NCBI GenBank assembly: GCA_002441005.1
Contig: DJWO01000002.1
Span: forward strand, 70,784 to 134,783
Reading direction: 5' to 3'
DNA: 64,000 bases
Origin: Candidatus Aminicenantes bacterium UBA6228
GTDB lineage: Bacteria; Acidobacteriota; Aminicenantia; Aminicenantales; Saccharicenantaceae
Translations under genes and position numbers: made by a program
The notes under the pieces: model-generated
Told to the model about the DNA's origin: nothing
The model's database searches: none
What the model saw: only the letters and a program-made list of their open reading frames with translations
In this document: one piece after another, positions 1,048 to 36,760 of the stretch
Layout of the letters: every line of letters starts with the position of its first letter
How positions within the stretch are numbered: the first letter of the stretch is position 1

Positions 1048-1914
1048 TTATTTATAAATATCACGGTGAATTATTTTTACTTCCAGTTTTTCCTGGCGTA
1101 AGTGATCCTTTAAAGCCTCAGCGATGACCACTGACCGGTGTTTTCCGCCAGTGCAACCGACAGAAATAGTCAGGGTGCTTTTGCCCTCTTTCCGGAAGCC
1201 GGGAATCTGACTGTCAATAAAAGCCAGGAGATTCTTAAGATAGTCAGCCGTTTCCCCTGACTTCAAAACAAACTCTCTAACCTTTCTTGATTTCCCGGTG
1301 AGATTTCTCAGCTCATCGGCATAAAAAGGATTGGGCAAAAATCTGGTGTCGAAAACCAGGTCTGAATCAAGAGGTAAACCGTATTTGTAACCAAAGCTGA
1401 TGACATTAACCTGCAGGCGGCGCCTGCTCTCTTTTAAAATTCTGCCGGCCAGCAGATCCTTCAGCTGGGAAATGCTCAAACCGGTCGTATCGATGACCTC
1501 ATCGGCCATAGCTTTAATCGGACTGAGTTTTTTTCTTTCGAGCCGGACCCCTTCCAGAATAGAGCCTTTCTTAGCTAAGGGGTGAGGCCGGCGGCTTTCA
1601 CTGAATCTCTTGACCAGAGCTTCATCCGAAGCTTCCAGAAAGATCAGTTTGGGCTTCACCCGCAGTTGTTTCAAAATCTGGGGAAAATCATTCAGAAAAT
1701 TTGGCTCACGCATATCTATGACCAAGGCAATGCGGTCTATTTCAACTTTTCCTTTTTGCCACAGGTCAATCAGCCCGGGTATCAATTTAGCGGGCAGGTT
1801 ATCGACGCAATAATATCCCAGGTCTTCCAGAAAGCGGATAACAACTGTCTTGCCTGAGCCGGACAGGCCGGTAATAATAATGAAATCCCCGTTGGTTTTA
1901 GTTTTAGCCATCAA
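1048..1914 (-). CDS. rapZ: RNase adapter protein RapZ (YhbJ family P-loop protein)
   Basis: Walker A GLSGSGKT near the N-terminus, with the conserved position downstream of ptsN/hprK. Confidence 0.9.
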   Translation of the reverse strand: MMAKTKTNGDFIIITGLSGSGKTVVIRFLEDLGYYCVDNLPAKLIPGLIDLWQKGKVEIDRIALVIDMREPNFLNDFPQILKQLRVKPKLIFLEASDEALVKRFSESRRPHPLAKKGSILEGVRLERKKLSPIKAMADEVIDTTGLSISQLKDLLAGRILKESRRRLQVNVISFGYKYGLPLDSDLVFDTRFLPNPFYADELRNLTGKSRKVREFVLKSGETADYLKNLLAFIDSQIPGFRKEGKSTLTISVGCTGGKHRSVVIAEALKDHLRQEKLEVKIIHRDIYK

Positions 1915-2492
1915 CCCCTCTTAACCGACAGCCTCTTTTCCAGCTGCCGGATAACATCCCGGGCAGCCTCATAACCTCTCTGCCTTAAAAGAAAAACCCG
2001 GCAAGCCACTTCAATCAAGGTGGCAATATTCCGGCCAGGAGCGACGGGAATGTGGAGCTGGGGAATCCTTCGCCCGGCCAGAAGATAATCTTCCTGGAAT
2101 TTAAGGCCGAGACGGTCAACTTCTATTTTTTTGCTCCACTTTTTAAGCCTGATCACCAGGTTAATCGGAGCCCTGTCCAGCAGGGCTGGGGGACCGAATA
2201 TTTCCTTGATATTGATGATGCCCAGCCCTCTGATTTCCATAAAATTCCGGGTTAGACGGGGAGAGCGACCTTGAAGCTGGCCATGTCCGTCTTCAAAAAT
2301 TTCAACGACATCATCGGAGATAAACTTATGCCCGCGAGCGATAAGCTCCAGCGAGCTCTCGCTTTTCCCAATCCCGCTGTCACCGATGATGAGCGTCCCC
2401 ACCCCGAATATTTTTAGCAGGCCGGCCGAGATGACTACCTGGCAGGCCGGGTTCCGGCTGGAAGCCGGTTTCCTTTTTTGACTTTTATTCAA
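1911..2492 (-). CDS. hprK: HPr kinase/phosphorylase, short form with the C-terminal catalytic domain only
   Basis: GDSGIGKSE P-loop and the downstream ELIARGHKFISDD motif; 4-bp overlap with rapZ. Confidence 0.8.
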   Translation of the reverse strand: MNKSQKRKPASSRNPACQVVISAGLLKIFGVGTLIIGDSGIGKSESSLELIARGHKFISDDVVEIFEDGHGQLQGRSPRLTRNFMEIRGLGIINIKEIFGPPALLDRAPINLVIRLKKWSKKIEVDRLGLKFQEDYLLAGRRIPQLHIPVAPGRNIATLIEVACRVFLLRQRGYEAARDVIRQLEKRLSVKRG

Positions 2493-2955
2493 TTTGCTTC
2501 TCTTCCTGCCTTTTGATCGTCTCCCGAACCTCGGCCTGGCTCCTGGCCTGCAGTAGTTTGTCTTTAAGTTCCGGTGACTTTTTAATTAATTGAGCAATCA
2601 GAGCCAGAATCTGCAGATTGAGGCTGGGATCTTCCAGGGAGGTTATGAGAAGAAAAAAGATATTAACCGGACGTCCATCAGGCGCCTCGAAAGGAACACC
2701 CTGCCTGGTAATTCCGACTAAGACGATAGGATTACTAACCCATTTGACTTTACAATGAGGAATAGCCACCCCTTCGCCCAGGGCCGTAGTCCCGAGTGAT
2801 TCCCGCTGCTCGAGCTTGTCAATAACTTCCTCCGGGCGGCTGATTAGCTTATTCTTTTTTAAATAATTGACCATCTCCCGGATGGCTTCCGCTTTGCTCT
2901 TGGCCTTAATATCCAGCAGGATTGTTTTTTCGTCGATAATATTGGATAACCTCAA
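2485..2955 (-). CDS. ptsN: PTS EIIA-Ntr (nitrogen regulatory IIA)
   Basis: 156 aa fructose-type EIIA with the GVAIPH active-site His; located between hpf and hprK. Confidence 0.85.
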   Translation of the reverse strand: MRLSNIIDEKTILLDIKAKSKAEAIREMVNYLKKNKLISRPEEVIDKLEQRESLGTTALGEGVAIPHCKVKWVSNPIVLVGITRQGVPFEAPDGRPVNIFFLLITSLEDPSLNLQILALIAQLIKKSPELKDKLLQARSQAEVRETIKRQEEKQIE

Positions 2956-3016
2956 GTCTAACTGCTCCTTACCGCCAATTCCAACCTGGATTCAATCTTC
3001 AGATAGGTTACCCTTT

Positions 3017-3541
3017 TCAAGCTTCAGGGTCAACCAGTCCAACCGTTCCGTCCTGGCGGCGGAAAATTACCGCCCAGTTCCTACTTCCTTCTTTTTTAAA
3101 AAGAAAGGCTTCTTTCCCGCCTTCTTCCAGTCTGACCAGGGCTTCTTCCAAGCTGATTGGCTGATCAGAATAATAGGGCAGCAGAACCAGTTTGGCCTCA
3201 ATCTGTGGCCTGAGGACAGGAGTGGCCAGAGCCTGACGGCTGGAGGCCCGGCGACGTTTTTGAATCAACTTTCTTCTTTCTTTGACAATTTTTCTTTCCA
3301 GACTGTCGAAGGCCTGGTTAAGTGAATTGAACATGTCGGTTGTTTCTTCCGACAGGGCAAAATCTTCTCCCCTCCTTTTAATTAACAGGTCAACTCTTTT
3401 CCGGCTTTTCTCTTCAGTCAGGATGACCTCAATTTGCTGCACCTCATCCAGGATTTTCCCCATCCTGTTGAGCCTTTTTTCACAATAATCCCTGATCTCC
3501 TCGGTCAACTCCGTATGCCTGGCAGTAAAATTAACGATCAT
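3017..3541 (-). CDS. hpf: Ribosome hibernation promoting factor (long HPF)
   Basis: N-terminus MIVNFTARHTELTEEIRDY; 174 aa with a C-terminal extension; immediately downstream of rpoN. Confidence 0.9.
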   Translation of the reverse strand: MIVNFTARHTELTEEIRDYCEKRLNRMGKILDEVQQIEVILTEEKSRKRVDLLIKRRGEDFALSEETTDMFNSLNQAFDSLERKIVKERRKLIQKRRRASSRQALATPVLRPQIEAKLVLLPYYSDQPISLEEALVRLEEGGKEAFLFKKEGSRNWAVIFRRQDGTVGLVDPEA

Positions 3542-4989
3542 TCGACCTCCTCCAGTAAAAATTTCTTTTTTCTTATATTGGCTGGCGGAAGACCCTGCTG
3601 GCCACGATATTTAGCCACAGTCCGGCGAGCGATCTGAACATTCTCCCTGGTTAATATAGCCACGATTTCCTCATCGCTCAAGGGATTGGTTTTATCTTCA
3701 TTCTGAACCAGCTTCCTGATTCTATCTTTGATTTTTAAGGAAGAAATTTCTTCCCCGTAGGCCCCGCTCAGCGACTTATGGAAGAAATATTTTAAAGGAA
3801 ACAACCCGAGAGGAGTCATCATATATTTGTTGGCTACCACCCGGCCAATGGTTGACTCATGCAGGCCAAGCTCCCGGCCGATCTCGATCAGAGTCATGGG
3901 CTTCAAGGCCTCGAGCCCATTCTCCAGAAATTCTTTTTGTTTTTTGACGATATAATCGGCTACCCGGTAGATGGTCCGGTTTCTTTGATTAATACTCTTG
4001 ATAAACCACAACGCTCTCTTCATCTTGTCTTTAATAAATCTGGCTGTCTCCTGATCAGCCTTGACTCCCGCCTGGGCTAATTGCCGGTAATAACGATTGA
4101 GCCGCAACCTGGGCAGGCCTTCTTCATTCAGGTAAATTTTCCATTCGCCGCGTTCTTTAACCACATAAATATCAGGGACGACATAGATGGTCCGGTCCTC
4201 ACTGTATTTTCGCCCGGGAGCCGGATCAAGGTTTTTAATCAGGTCAAGATGAAGACGCAATTCGGCCAGAGAAATATTAAGCTGGCTGGCCAGCTCCTGA
4301 TGAGCAGCCTTTTCCAGCAGGGGAAGATAATCAGCAATGATTCTCCTGGCCGTCTCATCCTGAAGGTTAAGCGAATCCATTTGAGCCAGCAACGCTTCTT
4401 TTAAAGTCAGGCTGCCGCAGCCAGGCGGATCAAACATTTTTATCTTTGACCGGACCTCTTCCACCAGGGCCAGATCCTCTGGCAGCCGGGAGGCTATTTC
4501 CTCCGGGCTCACGGTGAGATACCCGTCCTCATTGATATTACCGATAATATATTCAGCTACTTTTAGTTCACCTGGCTCAAAGAAAGTCAGCCCAGCCTGC
4601 CAGTTCAAATGATCCCAGAGAGACGGGCTCTCTGATACCTGATTTTCAAATCTTGGCTCATCCTGGCCGGTTTCATTTAAAGTTGGAATTGAGTCATCTA
4701 AATAATCTTCGAAACCAGCTGAAAAAATCACATCATCATAATTCTGGCCATCGCTGTCTGCCTGACCGGTTTCAGCGTCAGCTCCGCTTTCTTCCGGACT
4801 GGCCTCGCCGGCCGCCGTCTCCTCGCCTGACTCTCCCTCTATTTCCAGCAGCGGATTTTCAGATAATTCATCATAAACCACCTGCTGCAATTCAAGGTTG
4901 GTCAGCTGCAGCAGCTTAATGGCCTGTTGCAGGGCCGGCGCCAGGATCAGTTTCTGGGCCTGCTTTTGATTGAGCTTTTGCTTTATCAT
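3538..4989 (-). CDS. rpoN: RNA polymerase sigma-54 factor
   Basis: 483 aa with an acidic middle region, the C-terminal RpoN box ARRTVAKYR and an HTH. Confidence 0.95.
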   Translation of the reverse strand: MIKQKLNQKQAQKLILAPALQQAIKLLQLTNLELQQVVYDELSENPLLEIEGESGEETAAGEASPEESGADAETGQADSDGQNYDDVIFSAGFEDYLDDSIPTLNETGQDEPRFENQVSESPSLWDHLNWQAGLTFFEPGELKVAEYIIGNINEDGYLTVSPEEIASRLPEDLALVEEVRSKIKMFDPPGCGSLTLKEALLAQMDSLNLQDETARRIIADYLPLLEKAAHQELASQLNISLAELRLHLDLIKNLDPAPGRKYSEDRTIYVVPDIYVVKERGEWKIYLNEEGLPRLRLNRYYRQLAQAGVKADQETARFIKDKMKRALWFIKSINQRNRTIYRVADYIVKKQKEFLENGLEALKPMTLIEIGRELGLHESTIGRVVANKYMMTPLGLFPLKYFFHKSLSGAYGEEISSLKIKDRIRKLVQNEDKTNPLSDEEIVAILTRENVQIARRTVAKYRGQQGLPPANIRKKKFLLEEVE

Positions 4990-5727: not shown

Positions 5728-7541
5728 TTTTCCCTGCGAAGGGTGGTCACTGATCTTTTTTTCCCTTGATTTTCTACTGTGATTTTATCATCCAGGGTAA
5801 ATAAAGTCAATTTATCGGCTTCAACCCTGTTACCATCTTTATCTTTGAGCTTGGCCAGGCTGCTAAAAATAAAGACTTCCTCAGCCGGGCGGTAAGTGGC
5901 TTCTTTTGAGTCAAACTCATAGTCATGCCAGGAAAGCCTGACCGGGCCATCAGCCTCCAGACGGGTCAGCTCATCAGAATTTTCTCTTTCGAAATAAAAA
6001 ATAAGCCGTCCGGCCTGAAGTTTAAATTCATCAGAAAGGAAATTTACCTCTCTCCGGGCCTCGAGGGCCAGCCCGGAGGGAAGAAGGCTTAATTCCTTAG
6101 CGCTGAGTTCGGCTCTTTTTATTTTAGAGCCGGCCTGCCTGTAGGCCAGGTTAGCTTTAATCCCGTCACTTAAAGCTATCATCCCTGTTTCTCTATCCAC
6201 CGAGGCCCGGCCGGCCAGAAAAACATTTTCGTCCTGCCGTAGAACCGTCTGACCCTTGAGGTCAATTCTCTCCCTGTTCCCGCTGGCTTCAGCGCCTCCG
6301 GCAGTCAGGGGTCTATCCTTTTTAAAAAAGGAAACAGCCAGCTTAAAAAAATCCGGGCTTATTTCAAACTTGGCCCGGTTAGCTTTAAAACTAAGGTCAG
6401 ACATTTCTAACTCCAGGCTCTTTGACTCAAGCTTAAATTCAGGATAAGTCAACCGGGCTGAGGCCTGAAGGCTGATTTTCCCGGTCAGGAGATTATCTTC
6501 TAACCCCTGGCCCTCAAGCTCCAGTCGCTTTTCTCCCCCGTCGAAGACAAGCAGGACTGCTTTCCTGGCCAGAAACGAGGCCGCCTGCCCTTCTGGATTA
6601 AAAATTAATTCAATCTCCTCTCCCTGGCCGGCCAGGTCACCCGAGCGGCCCTCAGCCTTTAGTTCCCAGCTGCCCGGAGCCTGGAGAAGCCAGCTACCCT
6701 GTTGCCTGGTTAATATCATCTTAGCGGTAGCCAGGTTAAGACTTGAAAAAGTTGAGGCCTCTTCCATCTGCCTCAAATCAAAAAACGCTTTCCCTTCTAG
6801 TCTCATTTCTTCTGGCACAAAATTATTCTCATCAAGAAGTAAAGTTCCTCCCAAAGCTGTTCCGGACATAGAGCCCTGGTTAAATTTGAGCCCGCCGGCC
6901 TGAACCAATCCGGCTTTCAGGTCAAAATCGACCCTGTTTCCGCTCACTATTAGCGGCGGCTCTAAACTGTTAATCTTTATGACCGCCCCTTTTTGAAACT
7001 GGCCTTTTCTGTCTTTAAGGTCATAAGTGGCGCCGGTGGCAGAAATTTCCAGGCTTCTGAGGTCAAAACGAAGATTCTCTGCCTGCAAAAGGCCTGTTTT
7101 TAAATCATAAGTTAGATCAGGAGCCGAAAGTGTCAGGTCTCCGCTCTTAATTTCCACCGAGCCCTTAGCCAGGAGATTTTGCCAGCCGGAAGCCAGGCCT
7201 GCCTGGTCAGCCTTTAAAATCAGTTGAAAATCAGGTTTTTCCTGGAAAAATTCAACATTTCCCTTTAGCTGCCGGTTATTCTCTTCATCAATTGAGGCCA
7301 GGTCAGCTCTGACTTTTATTTTTCCACCCTGGCTGGTGACTTCCAGAGCGGTAAAATTTTCTTCGAGGCTTTGCACCTTGTCCGGCAACACTCCCCCGGG
7401 GTCAGGCCGGCTGACTTTCTTTTCTTTAGAACCAAGGAAAATGATAAGGATGATGGAGGCTATAAAAGCCACGAGAACCAGCAGGACAATTTTCCTCACC
7501 AGAGGCAGCCAGCCATAAGAGGCATATTTTTTTGGCATCAC
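5724..7541 (-). CDS. LptC/LptA (OstA-like) family periplasmic LPS-transport protein, extended 605-aa form
   Basis: N-terminal TM anchor followed by repetitive beta-jellyroll-like sequence, in the lptC/lptA position upstream of lptB. Confidence 0.55.
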   Translation of the reverse strand: MMPKKYASYGWLPLVRKIVLLVLVAFIASIILIIFLGSKEKKVSRPDPGGVLPDKVQSLEENFTALEVTSQGGKIKVRADLASIDEENNRQLKGNVEFFQEKPDFQLILKADQAGLASGWQNLLAKGSVEIKSGDLTLSAPDLTYDLKTGLLQAENLRFDLRSLEISATGATYDLKDRKGQFQKGAVIKINSLEPPLIVSGNRVDFDLKAGLVQAGGLKFNQGSMSGTALGGTLLLDENNFVPEEMRLEGKAFFDLRQMEEASTFSSLNLATAKMILTRQQGSWLLQAPGSWELKAEGRSGDLAGQGEEIELIFNPEGQAASFLARKAVLLVFDGGEKRLELEGQGLEDNLLTGKISLQASARLTYPEFKLESKSLELEMSDLSFKANRAKFEISPDFFKLAVSFFKKDRPLTAGGAEASGNRERIDLKGQTVLRQDENVFLAGRASVDRETGMIALSDGIKANLAYRQAGSKIKRAELSAKELSLLPSGLALEARREVNFLSDEFKLQAGRLIFYFERENSDELTRLEADGPVRLSWHDYEFDSKEATYRPAEEVFIFSSLAKLKDKDGNRVEADKLTLFTLDDKITVENQGKKRSVTTLRREK

Positions 7542-9241
7542 GCTAAGTGAGTCCTGACATCCTCCAGCTTGAGATGGATCTGGCTTTTCCCCCGGTAATC
7601 TGAGACTTCAAGTGAATAAGCCAGATCGACCTTCTGGCCGCGGCTTAACTCCTGCAGGCTGCCGGCTTTATCCCAGGCCAGAACCTCAAAGACCCGGCCC
7701 CCCTGCCTGGCCCAGAATTTAAGATGCCTGTTCTTCAAGACCACCGGCTCTCCGAGAATGTCTACCTCTTCGGCCATAAAAACCGGCCGCGAATTACCGA
7801 CTCCAAAAGGCAAAAGCCGGGTATAAAATTCCAGAAACGAAGGAGTAATAGCCGGGAAATTAAGCCGCCGGTCGATGACCAGTTTTTTCTGTAAGAGGTC
7901 ATCAGTTATTCTTTCGGCCGCCAGACTGTTTATTCTTTCTTTAAAAGGCAGAAGCTCAGACTGGTTAATCGTGCAGCCGATCGCCTGCTCATGCCCGCCG
8001 AAATTAACCAGCAGGGAACTGCAGTCATTGATCAGGTCGATGAGGGACAGATCAGGCAGGCTGCGGCCAGAGCCATAGGCCTGACCGTTTTCATAAGCAA
8101 ACAAAATTACTGGCCGGTAAAACAGCTCTTTAATTTTTGAGGCCACAATCCCGATTACCCCCCGGTGCCAGTGATCGCTGCCCAGAATTAGCAGGCGGTA
8201 TTTTTCATCCAGCTTTCTGCTCTTAATTTTTTGCACAGCTTCTTTAAAAATCTTTTCTTCAATCCTCTGCCGGGTATTATTGAGCTCGTTGAGCTTCTGG
8301 ACCAGCCCGGCACATTCTTCTTCCGAATCGGAAAAGAACAGCTGCAGGGCCAGCTCAGTTTCGCCCAGGCGGCCGGCCGCATTTATCCGCGGCCCGAGCC
8401 TGAACCCCAGGTCAACCTCATTTATCTTCCGGTTAGTAATTCCGGAAATTTCCAGCAAACTCTTTAGCCCCGGAGTTCTGACTCCTTTTAGCTTGTTCAT
8501 CCCCTCTCTGACCAGAATCCGGTTTTCTCCCTTGAGACTGGCCACATCAGCCACTGTCCCGATGCTGGCCAGCTTCAGAAAGGAAGTCAAATCCTGTTTG
8601 ATGCCCCGTTCTAAGAAAAGAGCCTGGATAAGTTTGAAGACTACTCCCACCCCGGCCAGATTTTTATCTGGATAACCAGAGGATTCGATGACTGGATTAA
8701 GGACGGCCACCGCCTGGGGTAAATCATCTCCAGGATGATGATGGTCGGTAATGATAACCTCCAGCCCCTTTTCTTTAGCTTCCTCCACAAAATCAGTAGC
8801 TTTTATTCCACAATCCACACTGATCAGCAGGTTAGCTTTCATTTCCAGGATATGGGGAAGATGGTGAATCTTCAGTCCATAGCCGTCTTTCATTCTATCG
8901 GGAATAAAATATTCGGCCTGGCCGCCAAGAGAACGGAGGGCCTTGACCAGCATGACCACCGACAGAATACCATCCACATCATAATCACCGAAGACCACCA
9001 TTTTTTCTTTTCTGGCTATAGCCTGAAAAATCCGGCCCGTAGCTTCCTTCATGCCTTTCATCAGAAATGGATTATGAAGCTCGGCCAGCTGGCCATAAAG
9101 AAAAAAAGCGGCTTCCCCGGCAGTCTTGATACCACGGTTAACCAGAATGGCAGCTATCTCGTCGGGGAGATTAAGCTCCTGGGCCAGAATCCAGGCTTCA
9201 GGATTTTCGGGCAGGATCCGCCAGTGGTAATTGGCCTTCAT
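7538..9241 (-). CDS. recJ: Single-stranded-DNA-specific exonuclease RecJ
   Basis: DHH motifs including ITDHHHPGD, plus a DHHA1 region; 567 aa. Confidence 0.9.
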   Translation of the reverse strand: MKANYHWRILPENPEAWILAQELNLPDEIAAILVNRGIKTAGEAAFFLYGQLAELHNPFLMKGMKEATGRIFQAIARKEKMVVFGDYDVDGILSVVMLVKALRSLGGQAEYFIPDRMKDGYGLKIHHLPHILEMKANLLISVDCGIKATDFVEEAKEKGLEVIITDHHHPGDDLPQAVAVLNPVIESSGYPDKNLAGVGVVFKLIQALFLERGIKQDLTSFLKLASIGTVADVASLKGENRILVREGMNKLKGVRTPGLKSLLEISGITNRKINEVDLGFRLGPRINAAGRLGETELALQLFFSDSEEECAGLVQKLNELNNTRQRIEEKIFKEAVQKIKSRKLDEKYRLLILGSDHWHRGVIGIVASKIKELFYRPVILFAYENGQAYGSGRSLPDLSLIDLINDCSSLLVNFGGHEQAIGCTINQSELLPFKERINSLAAERITDDLLQKKLVIDRRLNFPAITPSFLEFYTRLLPFGVGNSRPVFMAEEVDILGEPVVLKNRHLKFWARQGGRVFEVLAWDKAGSLQELSRGQKVDLAYSLEVSDYRGKSQIHLKLEDVRTHLA

Positions 9242-9338
9242 CTTTTTAAATTTAACATAACTTCAAGCCGGCGACAACCGGCTAAACCAGCTTAGCCTGG
9301 TTGACATCATCCGGGCTCAAAAATATAATTCATAGGCC

Positions 9339-10223
9339 GTGTTAGAAAAACTTAAAGAAACCCTGGCCAGGACCAGAAAATTCTTTGCCCCGATCGAACA
9401 GCTCTTAACCCGCAACCTGTCGCAGGAAGAAATTCTAAATGAACTGTTTGAGTTGCTCATTCTGGCCGATATCGGTCCTGCTACCAGTCAGAAAATTATC
9501 GACGGCCTCAAACAAAAAAGCCGAAAGTCAGGCCAGGCAGACCTCAGGTCTTTATTAAAACAAGAACTCATTGACATTCTGTCCTCTGAACCAGCTACGG
9601 TCAACGAGGCCTTTCCAGCTGTCTGGCTGCTGGTCGGGGTTAATGGCGGAGGCAAAACCACCTCGGCCGCCAAGCTGGCCTCTAAATACCAGAGCCAGGG
9701 TAAGAAAGTTATGCTGGCCGCGGCTGATACCTTCCGGGCAGCTGCTCAAGAACAACTGGTTCTATGGGGAAAGAGGCTGAATCTGCCGGTAATTCAGGGA
9801 CAAACGGGAGCCGATCCGGCTTCGGTCGTCTATGATGCTGTCCAATCATTTAAAGCCAGAAATTATGACCTGTTGATCATTGACACCGCCGGCCGCCTTC
9901 ACACTTATGCCAATCTGATGGCCGAGCTGGAAAAAATAAAAAAGGTTATCAGCCGGGAAATTCCTGGAGCCCCGCAAGAGATACTTCTGGTCCTTGATTC
10001 GACTATCGGGCAGAATGCCATCGTTCAGGCCAGAGAGTTTAACCGCTTTTCCGGCCTGACCGGGGTCTTCCTGACCAAACTTGATGGCACGGCCCGCGGA
10101 GGAAGCGTCCTGGCAGTCGTCGAAGAATTAAAACTGCCCATAAAATTTGTTGGCCTGGGCGAGACAGAAAAGGATATAATGGAGTTTGAACCGGAAGCCT
10201 TTGTTGAGGCTCTCCTCTCATGA
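9339..10223 (+). CDS. ftsY: Signal recognition particle receptor FtsY (NG domain)
   Basis: GVNGGGKTT, DTAGR and TKLDG GTPase motifs. Confidence 0.9.
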   Translation: MLEKLKETLARTRKFFAPIEQLLTRNLSQEEILNELFELLILADIGPATSQKIIDGLKQKSRKSGQADLRSLLKQELIDILSSEPATVNEAFPAVWLLVGVNGGGKTTSAAKLASKYQSQGKKVMLAAADTFRAAAQEQLVLWGKRLNLPVIQGQTGADPASVVYDAVQSFKARNYDLLIIDTAGRLHTYANLMAELEKIKKVISREIPGAPQEILLVLDSTIGQNAIVQAREFNRFSGLTGVFLTKLDGTARGGSVLAVVEELKLPIKFVGLGETEKDIMEFEPEAFVEALLS

Positions 10224-31271: not shown

Positions 31272-32729
31272 ATGCCGCTTACTACCTGGCTTATCATCAT
31301 CGGGGCTATTATAGTTTTTTTAGTTCTGGTCGGGCTGCTGCTGGGCACCCAGTACCGGAAAGTCGGTCCAAATGAAGCGTTAATCATTGCCGGCGGCCGC
31401 AAGAGGACGGTCACCCTGCCAGACGGAAGCAGGATGAAAGTCGGCTACAGGTACAAACTCGGCGGTGGAACTTTTGTCTGGCCATTTATCGAAAGAGTCT
31501 ATACCCTGCCTCTCGAAACAATTAGCCTGCTGATTAAAACGCCGGAAGTTTTAACTCATGAGGGAATTCCCATCATGGCTGAGGCCACGGCTCAGGTCAA
31601 GGTTGACTCGACAGATCTGGCTATCAGACTGGCTGCCGAACAGTTCCTGGGAACCGGCAAGGAAGGCATCCGCGATGTGGCTATGAATGTTCTCGAAGGA
31701 AAAATGCGGGAAGTCATGGGAACCATGACCGTTGAAGAAATTTACCGGGGGCGGCAGGAATTCTCGCGCCGGGTTGTTGAGATCACCAAAGAAGATTTCG
31801 GCAAGATGGGGCTGGTTCTGCTGTCTTTCTCACTCAAGGACATCAGCGATGCCCAGGGTTACATAGATGCCCTGAGCCGGCCGGTCATTGCCGCGGCTAA
31901 AAGAGATGCAGCTATCGCTCAAGCCGAAACCGAAAAAGAAGCGATCATCAAATCATCTCAGGCCAGAAAAGAAGCGGAAGTCGCCCGCCTGCAGTCTGAA
32001 GCTCAAATCGCCAAGGCTCAGTGGGAAAATGAAGCCAAGAAAGCTGAATCTCAGGTTCTGGTCAATCAGAAAAAAGCTCAAGCCGATTTCTCCTATGAAC
32101 TTGAGCGGCACAAAGTTTCTCAGGAAATAAAAAGAGAAGAAGCTAAGGCTCAGGAAATAGAAAAAGAAGAATCAATTAAGATTGAAGACCTGGAAATAAA
32201 ACGCAAAGAAAAGGAACTCGAGGCCAATGTTCTCAAACCGGCCGATGCCCGTAAGTACCAGATTCAGGCTGAGGCGGAAGCCGAAGAAGCCAGGCTGGTG
32301 GCAGAAGGCCGGGGAAAAGCTGAAGCCCTGAGACTGGAAGGCCAGGTAAAGGCTGAGGAAATAAAACTCCGCGGGCTGTCTGAAGCTGAAGCCATGCTCA
32401 AAAAAGCCCAGGCCTGGGAAAAATACAATGAGGCCGCTCTGCTCGAAAGCTACATCGGGGTGCTACCGGAACTGGCTAAGGCGGTGGCTGAGCCTCTGTC
32501 CAAAGTGGATAAGATTGTGATGATCGGCGGGGATAAGGGAACGGGAGCTAATCAGATAACCGGCCAGGTGACCCAGATTCTGGCTCAGATGCCAGAGGTC
32601 CTGAAGGCTTTGACCGGCGCTGATATCAGTGAGTATTTAAAAAATAAATTCAGCTCAAAAACTGAAGCTAAGGCTCAGGCCAAAGCTGAGACAGGTAAAA
32701 CTCAAGGCCAAACGCCTGAGAAAAAATAA
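31272..32729 (+). CDS. Flotillin / SPFH (band 7) domain protein
   Basis: N-terminal TM segment, an SPFH domain and a long Ala/Glu/Lys-rich coiled coil. Confidence 0.85.
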
Positions 32730-32761
32730 TTGACGTCAGAAGCGTCAGAAGCAGGATTGCC

Positions 32762-35089
32762 ATGACCATCTCAGAAAGAGCCACGAAAATAGGTGCTTCC
32801 CCGACCTTAAAAATATCGGCTAAAGCCAGGGCGATGAGGGCGGAAGGCCTGGATGTCATTGATTTAAGCCTGGGGGAACCAGATTTCCCCACGCCAGAAA
32901 ATATCAAGGCGGCCGGTATTAAGGCCATCCAGCAAAACTTCACCAAATATACCGAAAATGACGGCATCCTTGAGCTGAGGAAAGCGGTCTGCCAGAGGCT
33001 CAAAGAAGATTACGGTTTGGAATATAAGCCGTCGGAAGTCCTGGTGTCGAGCGGGGCCAAAAATTCCCTGTTTAATTTGATTGAAGCCATCGTCAATGAG
33101 GGCGATGAAGTCATTGTGCCGGCTCCTTACTGGGTGACTTATCCGGAGGGCGTCAGTCTGGTCAAGGGGAAACCGGTCATTGTTGAGACCAGGGAAGAAG
33201 ATGGATTTTTGCTTACCCCCGAAAAATTGAGAGAAGCGATCTCGCCTTCGACCAGGGCTATTATCCTTAATAACCCGAGCAACCCGACGGGAGCAGCTTA
33301 TGGACGCGAACAGCTGGAGGCTCTGGCTGAGGTTATAAGGAAAGAGGACATTTATGTCATCGCCGATGAGATTTACAGCCGGCTGGTCTATGACGGTTTT
33401 AAATTCGTGAGTTTTGCCGCCCTGGGCGAAGATATCAAGAAAAAGACAATCATTATTACCGGCGTTTCCAAGACTTATTCAATGACCGGCTGGAGAATAG
33501 GTTTTGCCGCCGGGCCGGCCGAAATCATAAACGCCATGTCGAAGGTTCAGAGTCACACCACCTCCAATGCCTGTTCAATTTCCCAGAAAGCCAGCGTCGA
33601 AGCGGTGGGCGGGCCGCAGTTTGAGGTTAACCGGATGGTGGCTGAGTTTCAGAGAAGACGGAACTATGTGCTGATGAAGCTTCAGCAGATGGCGGGGATC
33701 AGCTGTTTTAAACCGCAGGGAGCTTTTTATGTCTTCCCCAATGTCAGGTCGTTTTACGGGAAAGAAGCTGGCGGGATTCAGATCAGAAATTCATACGGGC
33801 TGGCCTATTATCTTTTGAAAGAAGCCAGGGTGGCTATCGTGCCAGGAGATGCTTTTGGAGCCGATGATTATATCCGGATCTCTTATGCCACTTCGATGGA
33901 GAATCTGGAAAAGGGGCTGGAGCGGATGGCCGGGGCGCTGGCCAGGCTCAAGACCGCTAAGAAAGTAAAGAAGATTTATCTTCAGAATTATGTCACCAAG
34001 GTCAGAAAGCCGGTGCCGGTGGAGGTGGTGGGCGAGCTGAAGGTCCGGGATGCCTTAGTCACGGAAATAGAAAGCCACCTCGGCTATGACAATTATTACG
34101 AGTGGAATGCCAATATCAACGGGACAATTGTTCAGCTGCGGACCAATGTGGGGCATCTGGCTGATTTCTGGGTGGAGAACTGGTTCCCGGGACAGCTCGA
34201 AGCCGGGTTGGAGCCGCAGGCGGTAATTTACGCCGTGGATAATATCCCGGGAAGAGAGCCGCGGGCTTACTATCATCCTGAGACCAGAACGGGGCTGCTG
34301 ATTAACGCCGATAATTATGGATCGCTGAGGAAGCTGGCCCTGGGCATGGTGATAGACTCGGAAGAACATTTAGGGATTAACGCCATCCGGGGAATGGCGG
34401 TCGCCCTGGACGGAAAGAGCCTGGTTCTCGTGGGGCAGCCGGGAACGAAGAAGACCGAGTTGTTTTTTGAACTGCTGAAGGGCGCGGGGGTTCAGGCTCA
34501 GACCAATGAGATAGTTTTTGTCAGATTCTCAGGCAACCAGGCCATGGCGGATAGTGTCGAGAGGAAATTTTTTATCCCGGCTAACACTGTTGAACTTGAT
34601 GACCGGCTGGCCAAACTTTTTGACCACAGCAAGTGCGAGAACGTCGTAAGCAGAAGAGAAGATTGCACCGATCTGAGCTGCCCGATTCAGGCTGACTGCC
34701 GGCTGGATAAAGGCGCGCCCTATTGCTTCAGAGCTTCGAATGAAGCTCAGGCCATGCTCGATCCAGCCTGGCTGGCGGGGAAACAGGGTTATGCCAGAAG
34801 AACAAACTTGAAGTCGCTGGTCATTCTGAGAAATGACCGGGTATCACCGGCGGTTGTCGAGCTGAAGAAGGATGAAGCTTTGAGGATTCTGGAAAGCGGC
34901 GAGCCAGCGGGAGCGGTTAGAACGTCGGGCGCCAGACCACAGCCATTTTTCAATCCCCATCTTTTAGTCATAAACGAAGACAAACTGGCTATTCAGCGGA
35001 TGTTTTTTAGCCGGCTGCTCGGCCAGGTTAAATGCTATTTAGTAAATAGCGGGGTGGCTACACCCGCCGACCTTCAGTCCCTCTTGTAA
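32762..35089 (+). CDS. Fusion protein: class I/II (aspartate) aminotransferase domain + C-terminal HprK-like P-loop domain
   Basis: Residues 1-~400 carry the PLP-fold motifs (NPSNPTG, SKTYSMTGWRIG). Residues ~560-610, GMAVALDGKSLVLVGQPGTKKTELFFELLKGAGVQAQTNEIVFV, parallel the HprK catalytic core in this same window ([36 protein letters not shown]). The ORF is continuous over 775 aa. Confidence 0.75.
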   Translation: MTISERATKIGASPTLKISAKARAMRAEGLDVIDLSLGEPDFPTPENIKAAGIKAIQQNFTKYTENDGILELRKAVCQRLKEDYGLEYKPSEVLVSSGAKNSLFNLIEAIVNEGDEVIVPAPYWVTYPEGVSLVKGKPVIVETREEDGFLLTPEKLREAISPSTRAIILNNPSNPTGAAYGREQLEALAEVIRKEDIYVIADEIYSRLVYDGFKFVSFAALGEDIKKKTIIITGVSKTYSMTGWRIGFAAGPAEIINAMSKVQSHTTSNACSISQKASVEAVGGPQFEVNRMVAEFQRRRNYVLMKLQQMAGISCFKPQGAFYVFPNVRSFYGKEAGGIQIRNSYGLAYYLLKEARVAIVPGDAFGADDYIRISYATSMENLEKGLERMAGALARLKTAKKVKKIYLQNYVTKVRKPVPVEVVGELKVRDALVTEIESHLGYDNYYEWNANINGTIVQLRTNVGHLADFWVENWFPGQLEAGLEPQAVIYAVDNIPGREPRAYYHPETRTGLLINADNYGSLRKLALGMVIDSEEHLGINAIRGMAVALDGKSLVLVGQPGTKKTELFFELLKGAGVQAQTNEIVFVRFSGNQAMADSVERKFFIPANTVELDDRLAKLFDHSKCENVVSRREDCTDLSCPIQADCRLDKGAPYCFRASNEAQAMLDPAWLAGKQGYARRTNLKSLVILRNDRVSPAVVELKKDEALRILESGEPAGAVRTSGARPQPFFNPHLLVINEDKLAIQRMFFSRLLGQVKCYLVNSGVATPADLQSLL

Positions 35090-35195: not shown

Positions 35196-36585
35196 TTATC
35201 TTCCCTCTAAACAGATTCTATCCCCTTTGTATAAGCTAATTTTTTCGTATCTGGCAAGCTTTATCATTTCAGGGGTGAAACCACTTCGAGAGAAAAGCAC
35301 ATAATAAACTCGAGTCTTGGAATCTCCCCAGCTAACCAGTTGAGCCTTTCGTTTAAGTTCATTGAAGATGCCAACCCCTACCGGATTTCGGCTCCATTTT
35401 ACTTCGCCCAAGAGAAGGCTATTTTGCTTGCGGTTTAACCCGACTAAATCTATCTCCTGATTTTTGTCCCACCATCTCCCGAGTTTTTCAAATTCGAAGA
35501 AAAGGTCGGCTCGCTGTCGAATAATTTGCGCCGCTATTTTCTCATAAATGAAGGAAAGATAGACTGGCAATTCAGCTTTTATTTCTTCCAGAGCTTTATC
35601 GGTCTGGCCCATTTCGAGCTGACCACGTCTCGGGAAAACAAACTTAAACCAGAACTGAATAAATTCATCTTTAAACCGATATAAACCCTTCTTACTCTTT
35701 AGAGGTTTTTCTTCGGTGACCGGGATCTCCCTTTCAATGATATCAAGGTCAGACAGGACCCCTGAATATTTATTAGCTACAGGCTGGGAAATACCGGTGG
35801 CCTTAACAATCTCCCCTAACCGCCTTTTCCCTAAGGCAATAGACTGAAGTAAAGAAAAATAAAATCTCAGTTCTCTTAATTCTTCCCTTAAAATAAATTC
35901 AACCTCATCATATAACGGTTCGCCTCTGGTTAAAATCTGGCTTTTTAGGTTATTGAAAAAATCTCCCTTCCTTGATAGCCATAGCCAATAGGCTGGAGTT
36001 CCTCCGGCAGCAGCAAAATGATGCATATGATCCCCAAAAGATTTGCCCGGCCTGAATTTTCGGACATCCTGGAAAGCCAGCGGCTGAAGCTTCTACTGGC
36101 CAGTTCTTCTCCCATAGAGAGGAGCTTTATAATTCAATACTTCAGTTTCCATCATAGCCACACTTGAACCCATCAAAATCAGGTATACCCTGCTCTTAGA
36201 AAGATATTCATCCCAGAGCCGCTGGAAAATACCCGTGATTCCCCCGGTTGGCCTGGATTAGATGGGTAAATTCATCAAAAACCAAAACTAATTTCATATC
36301 CTTTTCTTTTATATAACGAAAACTCTCCTCCCAATTGGCAAATCCTCGCGTGGTAAGCAGAGGTTCTTTATAATAGTTCCCGAGTTCAACCGAAAATCTA
36401 CGCAGCTGTTCTTTCTCGTTAGCAGGCTCACTCAGAAAATAGACATGCGGTTTCGTGTCGATAAACTTTTTAACCAGCTCTGTTTTGCCCACCCTTCTTT
36501 TACCCCAGAGAATAATCATCTGAGCCTGGTCATCTGCCCATTTTTTCTCCAGAAACTCTAACTCTTTTTCCCGGTTGATAAACAT
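35196..36585 (-). pseudogene. DUF234-type AAA ATPase, disrupted by a frameshift and an in-frame TAG
   Basis: The N-terminal ORF (36208-36585) has Walker A GKRRVGKT and Walker B LVFDEF. The reading frame changes at a G5 run near 36230. An in-frame TAG follows ...LYGRRTGQ, then the frame continues KLQPLAFQDVRKF... into the C-terminal ORF (35196-36026). Confidence 0.7.
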
Positions 36586-36641: not shown

Positions 36642-36760
36642 GGGGACGTGATACTCTGTCCCTGGGGACAGAGTATCACGTCCCTAATTTGCAACTCATT
36701 TAATTACAACAAGATAGAGATTTGAGATGAGAAAAAAGAGGGACAGGGTATCACGTCCCC
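36642..36760. repeat. 119-bp element: perfect 20-bp palindrome (GGGACGTGATACTCTGTCCC / GGGACAGAGTATCACGTCCC, 2-nt loop) + 55-bp AT-rich spacer + third arm copy
   Basis: Read directly from the sequence; identical to the copy at 39992-40110 except for the loop (tg versus ca). Confidence 0.9.

Follow-up and report, generated by a model that had tools for sequence, protein, structure and literature searches.

An aspartate aminotransferase fused to a miniature PEP-carboxykinase-fold domain with a remodelled active site in Candidatus Aminicenantes

A gene in a 64,000-nucleotide (nt) stretch of Candidatus Aminicenantes bacterium UBA6228 (contig DJWO01000002.1), termed the window throughout, encodes a 775-amino-acid (aa) protein in which an aspartate aminotransferase (AspAT) is joined to a miniature domain with the fold of phosphoenolpyruvate (PEP) carboxykinase (PEPCK). 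We rate both its subfamily and its domain architecture as new, and its active site as remodelled. The C-terminal domain probably acts neither as a carboxykinase nor as a protein kinase. Our preferred reading, held tentatively at a probability of about 0.45, is that it binds a nucleotide or an anion and serves as a regulatory or docking module, coupling the aminotransferase to PEPCK at the oxaloacetate node. PEPCK and AspAT flank oxaloacetate, a scarce and unstable hub metabolite, and the architecture suggests an undescribed link at the junction of aspartate, oxaloacetate and PEP. Databases name the fusion protein an aminotransferase only. Literature searches on the fusion, on PEPCK-like aminotransferases, on HprK-related kinases and on PEPCK in Aminicenantes returned nothing relevant to this architecture, and an earlier note on this DNA, made from the sequence alone, had regarded aminotransferase fusions of HprK and HprK-related kinases as not known; no annotation or paper describing the present fusion was found.

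The fusion is real and is conserved across a whole bacterial clade. The open reading frame (ORF) list and the translation bear out the single 775-aa ORF described at 32762..35089 on the forward strand. Scanning one genome for each species yielded at least 266 relatives, and the locus counts given here cover the best 80 of these. They come almost entirely from metagenome-assembled genomes of Aminicenantes or Ca. Saccharicenans, with 54–91% identity, and a few of their taxon labels are probably mis-binned. A survey of these orthologous fusions found one uninterrupted, stop-free ORF of 763–807 aa over both domains in all 70 loci whose upstream sequence is long enough; the remaining 10 of the 80 are truncated by contig ends and hence stand outside this count. 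Five independent contigs from several sources encode exactly this 775-aa protein, whose database entry is HAV41843.1 ("aminotransferase class I and II"). The GC content of the fusion gene is 0.50–0.55 and is even across the junction between the AspAT and the extension. These observations leave a negligible probability that two adjacent genes only look fused owing to a frameshift, an overlooked stop codon or chimeric assembly. A few database homologues do appear standalone or split (P0023, P0054), as an artefact would predict, but they were rejected as true split or standalone versions because their frameshifts are located in the aminotransferase part. Loci L089 and L094, which look split, have their frameshifts within that part, and the junction of the AspAT with the miniature domain is in frame.

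The N-terminal domain closely resembles the solved AspATs of subgroup Ib, namely AspAT B (6f35, E 7e-111), 1j32, the aspartate/prephenate aminotransferase 5wmh and the Thermus enzyme 1bjw. Its 396 N-terminal residues align end to end with these structures at E values of about 1e-92 to 7e-111; unlike the fusion protein, the solved enzymes have no C-terminal extension. The sequence contains LSLGEPDF, SGAKNS, NNPSNPTG, ADEIY and IRISYA, and the motifs GAK (aa 97–102), NPxNPTG (170–177), DEIY (201–205), SKxxxMTGWR (GVSKTYSMTGWRIG, 234–247) and IRISY (371–376) align with those of 6f35. The functional residues of AspATs in these motifs are the pyridoxal phosphate (PLP) lysine of SKxxxMTGWR, the Asp and Tyr of DEIY and the Asn of NPxNPTG; the carboxylate-binding Arg is that of the C-terminal IRISY and the Ib-specific Lys that of GAK. 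The earlier description of a complete, AspC-like class-I aminotransferase with its PLP lysine in SKTYSMTGW therefore holds, since PF00155 matches end to end and the motif is present. The best NCBIfam model, NF004769, gives 438 bits against an equivalog cut-off of 617, which the domain misses. The domain is well supported as an aspartate-type aminotransferase, with a presumed substrate range.

The C-terminal extension spans aa ~391–775 and includes GKSLVLVGQPGTKKTELFFELLKGAGVQAQTNEIVFV, the string that the earlier note had quoted from it. Pfam, NCBIfam and PDB sequence searches with aa 391–775 returned nothing, the first two without any match at E <= 1, and the PEPCK_ATP profile PF01293 was likewise absent from the Pfam and NCBIfam results. 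A family-profile search of the PDB recovered only the tail of the aminotransferase and sub-significant HprK matches. A profile search of 1.84 billion representatives was more productive and gave 194 proteins at E <= 1e-10, and the family holds at least ~190 clusters at 50% identity. Besides fusions, it includes standalone proteins of 350–460 aa, for example from Omnitrophota and Dehalococcoidia.

These standalone proteins connect the domain to PEPCK. When aligned by hhalign with E. coli PckA, they give a probability of 98.7% over 359 columns, beginning at about PckA residue 85, and they have sub-threshold matches to Hpr_kinase_C, HprK_rel_A, ScmC and PEPCK models, with an E value of 8e-14 for the NCBIfam PEPCK model. 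The homology of the C-terminal domain to PckA was established through these relatives because direct hhalign comparison with single sequences gave low probabilities (2.5% for the family against a single neighbouring PEPCK). The C-terminal domain has the PEPCK fold, with both of its constituent domains. The family, here called mini-PEPCK, has no Pfam or NCBIfam model and sits structurally between PEPCK and HprK in their superfamily. Its C-terminal domain in the fusion descends from the PEPCK/HprK P-loop superfamily yet belongs, by its residues and extent, to neither PEPCK nor HprK.

Several differences set the domain apart from PckA (PF01293, EC 4.1.1.49; 1ii2, 1j3b, 1aq2). PckA has 510–540 aa and the C-terminal domain ~350. 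The first ~85 residues of PckA, which carry the R65 substrate loop, are absent, with the alignment beginning at about residue 85. Also absent are the last ~80, which form the adenine pocket (the R449/I452/T455 region); the protein ends ~10 residues past YLVN[ST]G, leaving these PckA residues unmatched. Unlike PckA, the domain has an extra insertion with four cysteines, a fused aminotransferase and arginines at the positions of Mn2+ ligands. Another PEPCK-fold protein is NDUEG2, an accessory subunit of respiratory complex I in Euglena gracilis (8j9h). NDUEG2, at 11% identity, differs in being eukaryotic, in residing in a membrane complex and in having no aminotransferase.

The residue map (Table 1) was obtained from a joint sequence and profile alignment, with a one-residue ambiguity at Y207/K212/K213. 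By the published structures of E. coli PckA, Lys213, His232 and Asp269 are its Mn2+ ligands and R65 and R333 its substrate-binding arginines. Only the acidic ligand is kept, as Glu583 at the position of Asp269, and the positions of Lys213 and His232 are occupied by Arg523 and Arg543. The P-loop retains the equivalents of Lys254 and Thr255, with K564 and T565 invariant in 74 of 74 Aminicenantes orthologues, and Lys stands where GxxGxGK[ST] has its third Gly. Also invariant in these orthologues are R543, G558, G561, T562, R601, K602, E626 and N627, within a total of ~40 invariant polar residues; residue 460 is Arg in 71 and Lys in three. The position equivalent to R333 drifts among H, Q, Y, R, F, M and S. 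A forced global alignment had equated R333 with R647 (in CRLD). This was rejected because the joint alignment makes the Cys-rich segment an insertion and places R333 at Q663.

Classification of all retrieved sequences divides the family in two. The 58 "K/H" clusters are all standalone and have the complete PEPCK catalytic set (GxGK[ST]T, DD, Arg, Arg), and the 94 "R/R" entries are nearly all aminotransferase fusions or fragments of them. The K/H proteins, such as P0098 and P0100 from Omnitrophota and P0094 from Dehalococcoidia, belong to the same family as the fusion domain (profile E 1e-60 to 1e-94) and are of similar size. They share an N-terminal N-x-x-T motif with the linker of the fusion, and some share the Cys insertion. 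Unlike the fusion, they keep Lys, His, GTGK[ST]T, DD, Arg(288) and Arg(333), and no aminotransferase is attached. Fusions from outside Aminicenantes are intermediate: P0049 and P0053 keep GTGK[SA], DD and Arg333, yet are R/R. In the P0089 fusion the P-loop is degenerate (APNVKKER) with R/R kept, and the R/R domain of P0107 lacks the Cys insertion and has a P-loop (GSSENDIAT) that is dead. Retention of R/R in proteins with degenerate P-loops argues that the conserved role needs no phosphoryl transfer.

One standalone K/H protein, P0192 (754 aa), contains an intein (PF14890, residues ~200–393) within its Walker-A motif (APTGTGK/S...intein...HN/STSS). Inteins usually occupy functionally critical sites, and this position would fit the standalone K/H proteins being active P-loop enzymes. 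The gene contexts of four standalone relatives, and those of P0107 and P0187, are heterogeneous. The gene just before the one for the standalone homologue P0109 (L086, 4194–7197) encodes 562 aa and matches radical SAM faintly; P0109 also shows a weak ScmC match, which recalls the HprK-related kinases of peptide-modification cassettes.

The earlier note had read the extension as an HprK-like domain, directly comparable with a genuine hprK at 1911–2492. The latter gene is indeed a short hprK (Hpr_kinase_C, E 4.5e-54) and lies within a canonical cluster at 1048–4989, all of it on the minus strand, of rpoN (3538–4989), hpf (3017–3541), ptsN/EIIA-Ntr (2485–2955), hprK and rapZ (1048–1914); its 193-aa product consists of the C-terminal kinase domain only. 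Profile searches and structure prediction give the extension a PEPCK-type P-loop fold and not that of HPr kinase. What survives of the HprK proposal is the P-loop spacing, which is real, and membership of the PEPCK/HprK P-loop superfamily. Its identity as an HPr kinase does not survive, with no Pfam or NCBIfam match at E <= 1, and statistical support at the sequence level is weak (hhalign with the window HprK covers 47 columns at 15%; PDB HprK chains against the family profile give E 0.03–0.14). The models for HprK_rel_A/B and ScmC (TIGR04352, TIGR04355, TIGR04249) have no match to the window domain at E <= 1, and with the standalone relatives they give E values of 6e-8 to 0.09, far under their cut-offs. 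The Walker A of HprK, GxSGxGKS, and its Asp-Asp pair are not found, as the loop reads GQPGTKKT and the pair is N582-E583. Compared with the HprK C-terminal domain (PF07475; TIGR00679; 1jb1, 1ko7, 3tqf; and the window HprK), the match covers only the nucleotide-binding lobe of 130–150 residues. The ~170-aa HprK kinase fold does not account for the whole domain, which has an extra N-terminal lobe of the PEPCK type that is absent from HprK. A protein kinase or phosphorylase of HprK type that controls the aminotransferase or some other protein by phosphorylation, perhaps in connection with the nitrogen phosphotransferase system (PTS-Ntr), is therefore a very improbable description of the domain. 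No sign of the suggested link to the PTS-Ntr/HprK/sigma-54 module was found, and no PTS gene is a conserved neighbour in the 80+ loci. The remark that the Walker A is atypical (GTKKT) and the domain "regulatory or catalytically atypical" was reasonable, given the loop GQPGTKKTE and the altered catalytic residues.

Gene neighbourhoods point toward PEPCK. A genuine PEPCK_ATP gene lies 17–250 nt downstream of the fusion, on the same strand, in 24 of the 80 loci. On inspection this PEPCK has all catalytic motifs; PF01293 scores 83.6 bits (L059), NCBI names it PEPCK (ATP), and the matches listed in a search with it all have at least 77% identity. In a basal lineage (L089), PEPCK lies 4 nt downstream of the fusion and is followed by ndk, and in L091, a third lineage, it adjoins, in divergent orientation, the pair formed by the fusion and an upstream flotillin gene. 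In P0107 the R/R domain directly precedes a complete PEPCK_ATP (E 2e-48) within one fused protein.

In the mechanism we propose, the AspAT module would interconvert aspartate and 2-oxoglutarate with oxaloacetate and glutamate. The mini-PEPCK module, its carboxykinase chemistry presumably lost, would bind a nucleotide or an anionic metabolite, such as ATP/ADP, pyrophosphate (PPi), PEP or oxaloacetate. It would thereby couple the transaminase to canonical PEPCK, by docking, with oxaloacetate handed between the enzymes, and/or by allosteric gating of transamination according to energy or PEP status. Ligand binding, the interaction with PEPCK and the direction of flux are points that we infer. The module would not duplicate PEPCK chemistry because the P-loop is kept, arginines replace the Mn2+ and enolate machinery, and a competent PEPCK is adjacent or fused; a second, crippled PEPCK would be redundant beside a competent one. 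Several observations weigh against the coupling of AspAT to PEPCK. The 24 PEPCK-adjacent Aminicenantes loci form a single clade, and they therefore count as one evolutionary event, to which two from other lineages are added. No PEPCK is near the fusion in the window or in the Saccharicenans clade (L001–L018, L021), as far as the gene neighbourhood reaches. The full-length AlphaFold 2 (AF2) model, made with a shallow alignment of the N-terminal domain, has a predicted template modelling score (pTM) of 0.50 and gives no confident geometry between the domains. The mapping of catalytic residues rests on alignments, including the ambiguous site at Y207/K212/K213. Finally, the invariant Walker-A Lys and Thr, the acidic residue at 583 and the ~40 polar residues could fit an enzyme with altered chemistry equally well.

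The last point leads to the main rival, a bifunctional enzyme in which an active mini-PEPCK processes the 2-oxo acid made by the transaminase, so that one polypeptide converts aspartate to PEP or carries out a related two-step reaction. The second step might be an Arg-assisted, Mn-independent conversion of oxaloacetate to PEP or another phosphoryl transfer dependent on a nucleoside triphosphate or PPi. We regard this as unlikely but serious, and what keeps it open is that in Aminicenantes the P-loop and many polar residues are strictly conserved. The whole PEPCK fold is present, the product of AspAT is the substrate of PEPCK, and G558, G561, T562, K564, T565, the acid D/E583, E600-R601-K602 and E626-N627 are invariant in the 74 orthologues in a pattern like that of an active site. 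P0049 and P0053 retain further catalytic features, and the Saccharicenans loci have no PEPCK beside the fusion. Against such an enzyme, five residues common to PEPCK and the K/H proteins are changed (K212/213 to R, H232 to R, D268 to N, K288 to P, and R333 variable), both the R65 and the adenine-binding segments are absent, a competent PEPCK is immediately beside the fusion in three lineages, and the P-loops of P0089 and P0107 are degenerate. At the opposite extreme, the domain could be an inert structural relic, for instance one that serves oligomerisation or stability and has no function that depends on a ligand. This is improbable, as 74 species-level genomes, at 55–90% identity, share the P-loop and dozens of polar residues, and the R/R signature is kept across phyla.

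A more specific form of the coupling module, speculative and in our judgement rather unlikely, is a pseudo-enzyme adaptor derived from a paralogue. The former metal site of the R/R module, now lined with arginines, would bind oxaloacetate/PEP or a nucleotide, and the module would physically recruit canonical PEPCK to the AspAT dimer, forming a dedicated aspartate-oxaloacetate-PEP metabolon that shields labile oxaloacetate. Such a metabolon might be organised at flotillin membrane microdomains, an idea raised because the flotillin-fusion gene pair spans phyla.

A conserved AspAT with a remodelled PEPCK fold, repeatedly found beside a real PEPCK, would be a natural means of hard-wired coupling or regulation at the oxaloacetate node. 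If the adaptor were borne out, a central metabolic node would have a built-in device of a new kind for channelling or regulation. The mini-PEPCK family is newly defined, with a clean split between K/H members, apparently active by their sequence, and Arg/Arg-substituted members. This active/pseudo pair is tractable for enzymology of the arginines that replace the metal site. Annotators have reason to drop the plain "aminotransferase" label for the 775-aa proteins.

Table 1. Features of the fusion gene and its surroundings, with the equivalents of E. coli PckA residues
Feature	Window position	Strand	Basis or remark
Flotillin/SPFH gene directly upstream of the fusion	31272..32729	+	Band_7 E 6e-29 and weak Flot match
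AGGA, possible ribosome-binding site 5 nt before ATG	32753..32756	+	Direct sequence reading; presumed function
Whole fusion gene	32762..35089	+	775 codons plus stop, ATG start; ORF list and translation
Subgroup-Ib aspartate aminotransferase domain, aa 31–388	32852..33925	+	PF00155 E 9e-79, model positions 2–360 of 361
Codon of PLP-binding lysine K237, in GVSKTYSMTGWRIG	33470..33472	+	Motif position; aligns to SKAYAMTGWRIG of 6f35
Basic linker, aa 396–425	33947..34036	+	Predicted local confidence (pLDDT) below 50 in both models
Linker motif N409-x-x-T412-[KR]-V-[KR]-K, in LQNYVTKVRKPV (aa 407–418)	33980–34015	+	N409 and T412 at least 90% conserved
Miniature PEP-carboxykinase-fold domain, "R/R" type, aa 426–775	34037..35086	+	
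PckA Y207-G: Y519-G			Joint alignment
PckA K212/K213: R523 codon	34328..34330	+	R in 73/74 orthologues; Lys in standalone homologues
PckA H232 (Mn2+ ligand): R543 codon	34388..34390	+	R in 74/74 orthologues; His in standalone homologues
Walker-A/P-loop GQPGTKKTE, aa 558–566	34433..34459	+	Aligns to PckA G248–T256 (GLSGTGKTT)
PckA D268-D269: N582-E583	34505..34510	+	ND in most orthologues; DD in standalone homologues
PckA K288: P606			Joint alignment
PckA E311-N-V: E626-N-V			Joint alignment
Four-cysteine insertion C635-x4-C640-x5-C646-x8-C655	34664..34726	+	4 Cys invariant in 74/74 orthologues
PckA R333: Q663			Joint alignment
Terminator-like hairpin and T-run, ~80 nt past the fusion stop codon	35170..35189	+	Consensus scan only

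Two further elements of the protein are conserved. Standalone homologues have the N-x-x-T motif of the linker at their N-termini (NYITTTRRRV, NAVTSPKRRT). Speculatively, this motif, modelled as disordered, could fold over the active site and take the place of the R65 loop, which PEPCK has and the domain lacks. The four-cysteine insertion, near which C625 is also conserved, is shared by some standalone homologues (P0100) but not by PckA, P0094 or the N-terminal domain of P0107. It is a probable metal site for Zn or Fe-S.

The upstream flotillin gene ends 32 nt before the start of the fusion gene. It lies immediately upstream on the same strand in 56 of the 80 loci, and the pair recurs in three distant lineages (flotillin gene at 99–1499 in L088, CSSED10-310; at 3529–4767 in L089; at 3556–4983 in L091) and in the Aminicenantes-type locus L094 (flotillin gene at 2309–3727). 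The flotillin is probably co-transcribed with the fusion and a conserved partner, a pairing with no obvious rationale. A recurring association with ndk is possible: in L089 this gene follows PEPCK (7291–9562), and another ndk directly precedes the standalone P0100 in L085 (4325–6077). Neither the window nor the 80 Aminicenantes loci showed such an association.

Downstream of the fusion in the window, a DUF234 ORF (35196–36026) and an ATPase_2 ORF of the archaeal AAA type (36208–36585), both on the minus strand, resemble one gene split in two. The local GC content there is 0.41–0.43, and disruption or insertion of a gene is the probable explanation. What follows the fusion in some orthologous loci is instead a SIS-domain gene or the PEPCK gene. 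A perfect hairpin with a 19-bp stem, GGGACGTGATACTCTGTCC CCAG GGACAGAGTATCACGTCCC, occupies window positions 36643–36684, between the ATPase fragment and an amidohydrolase gene.

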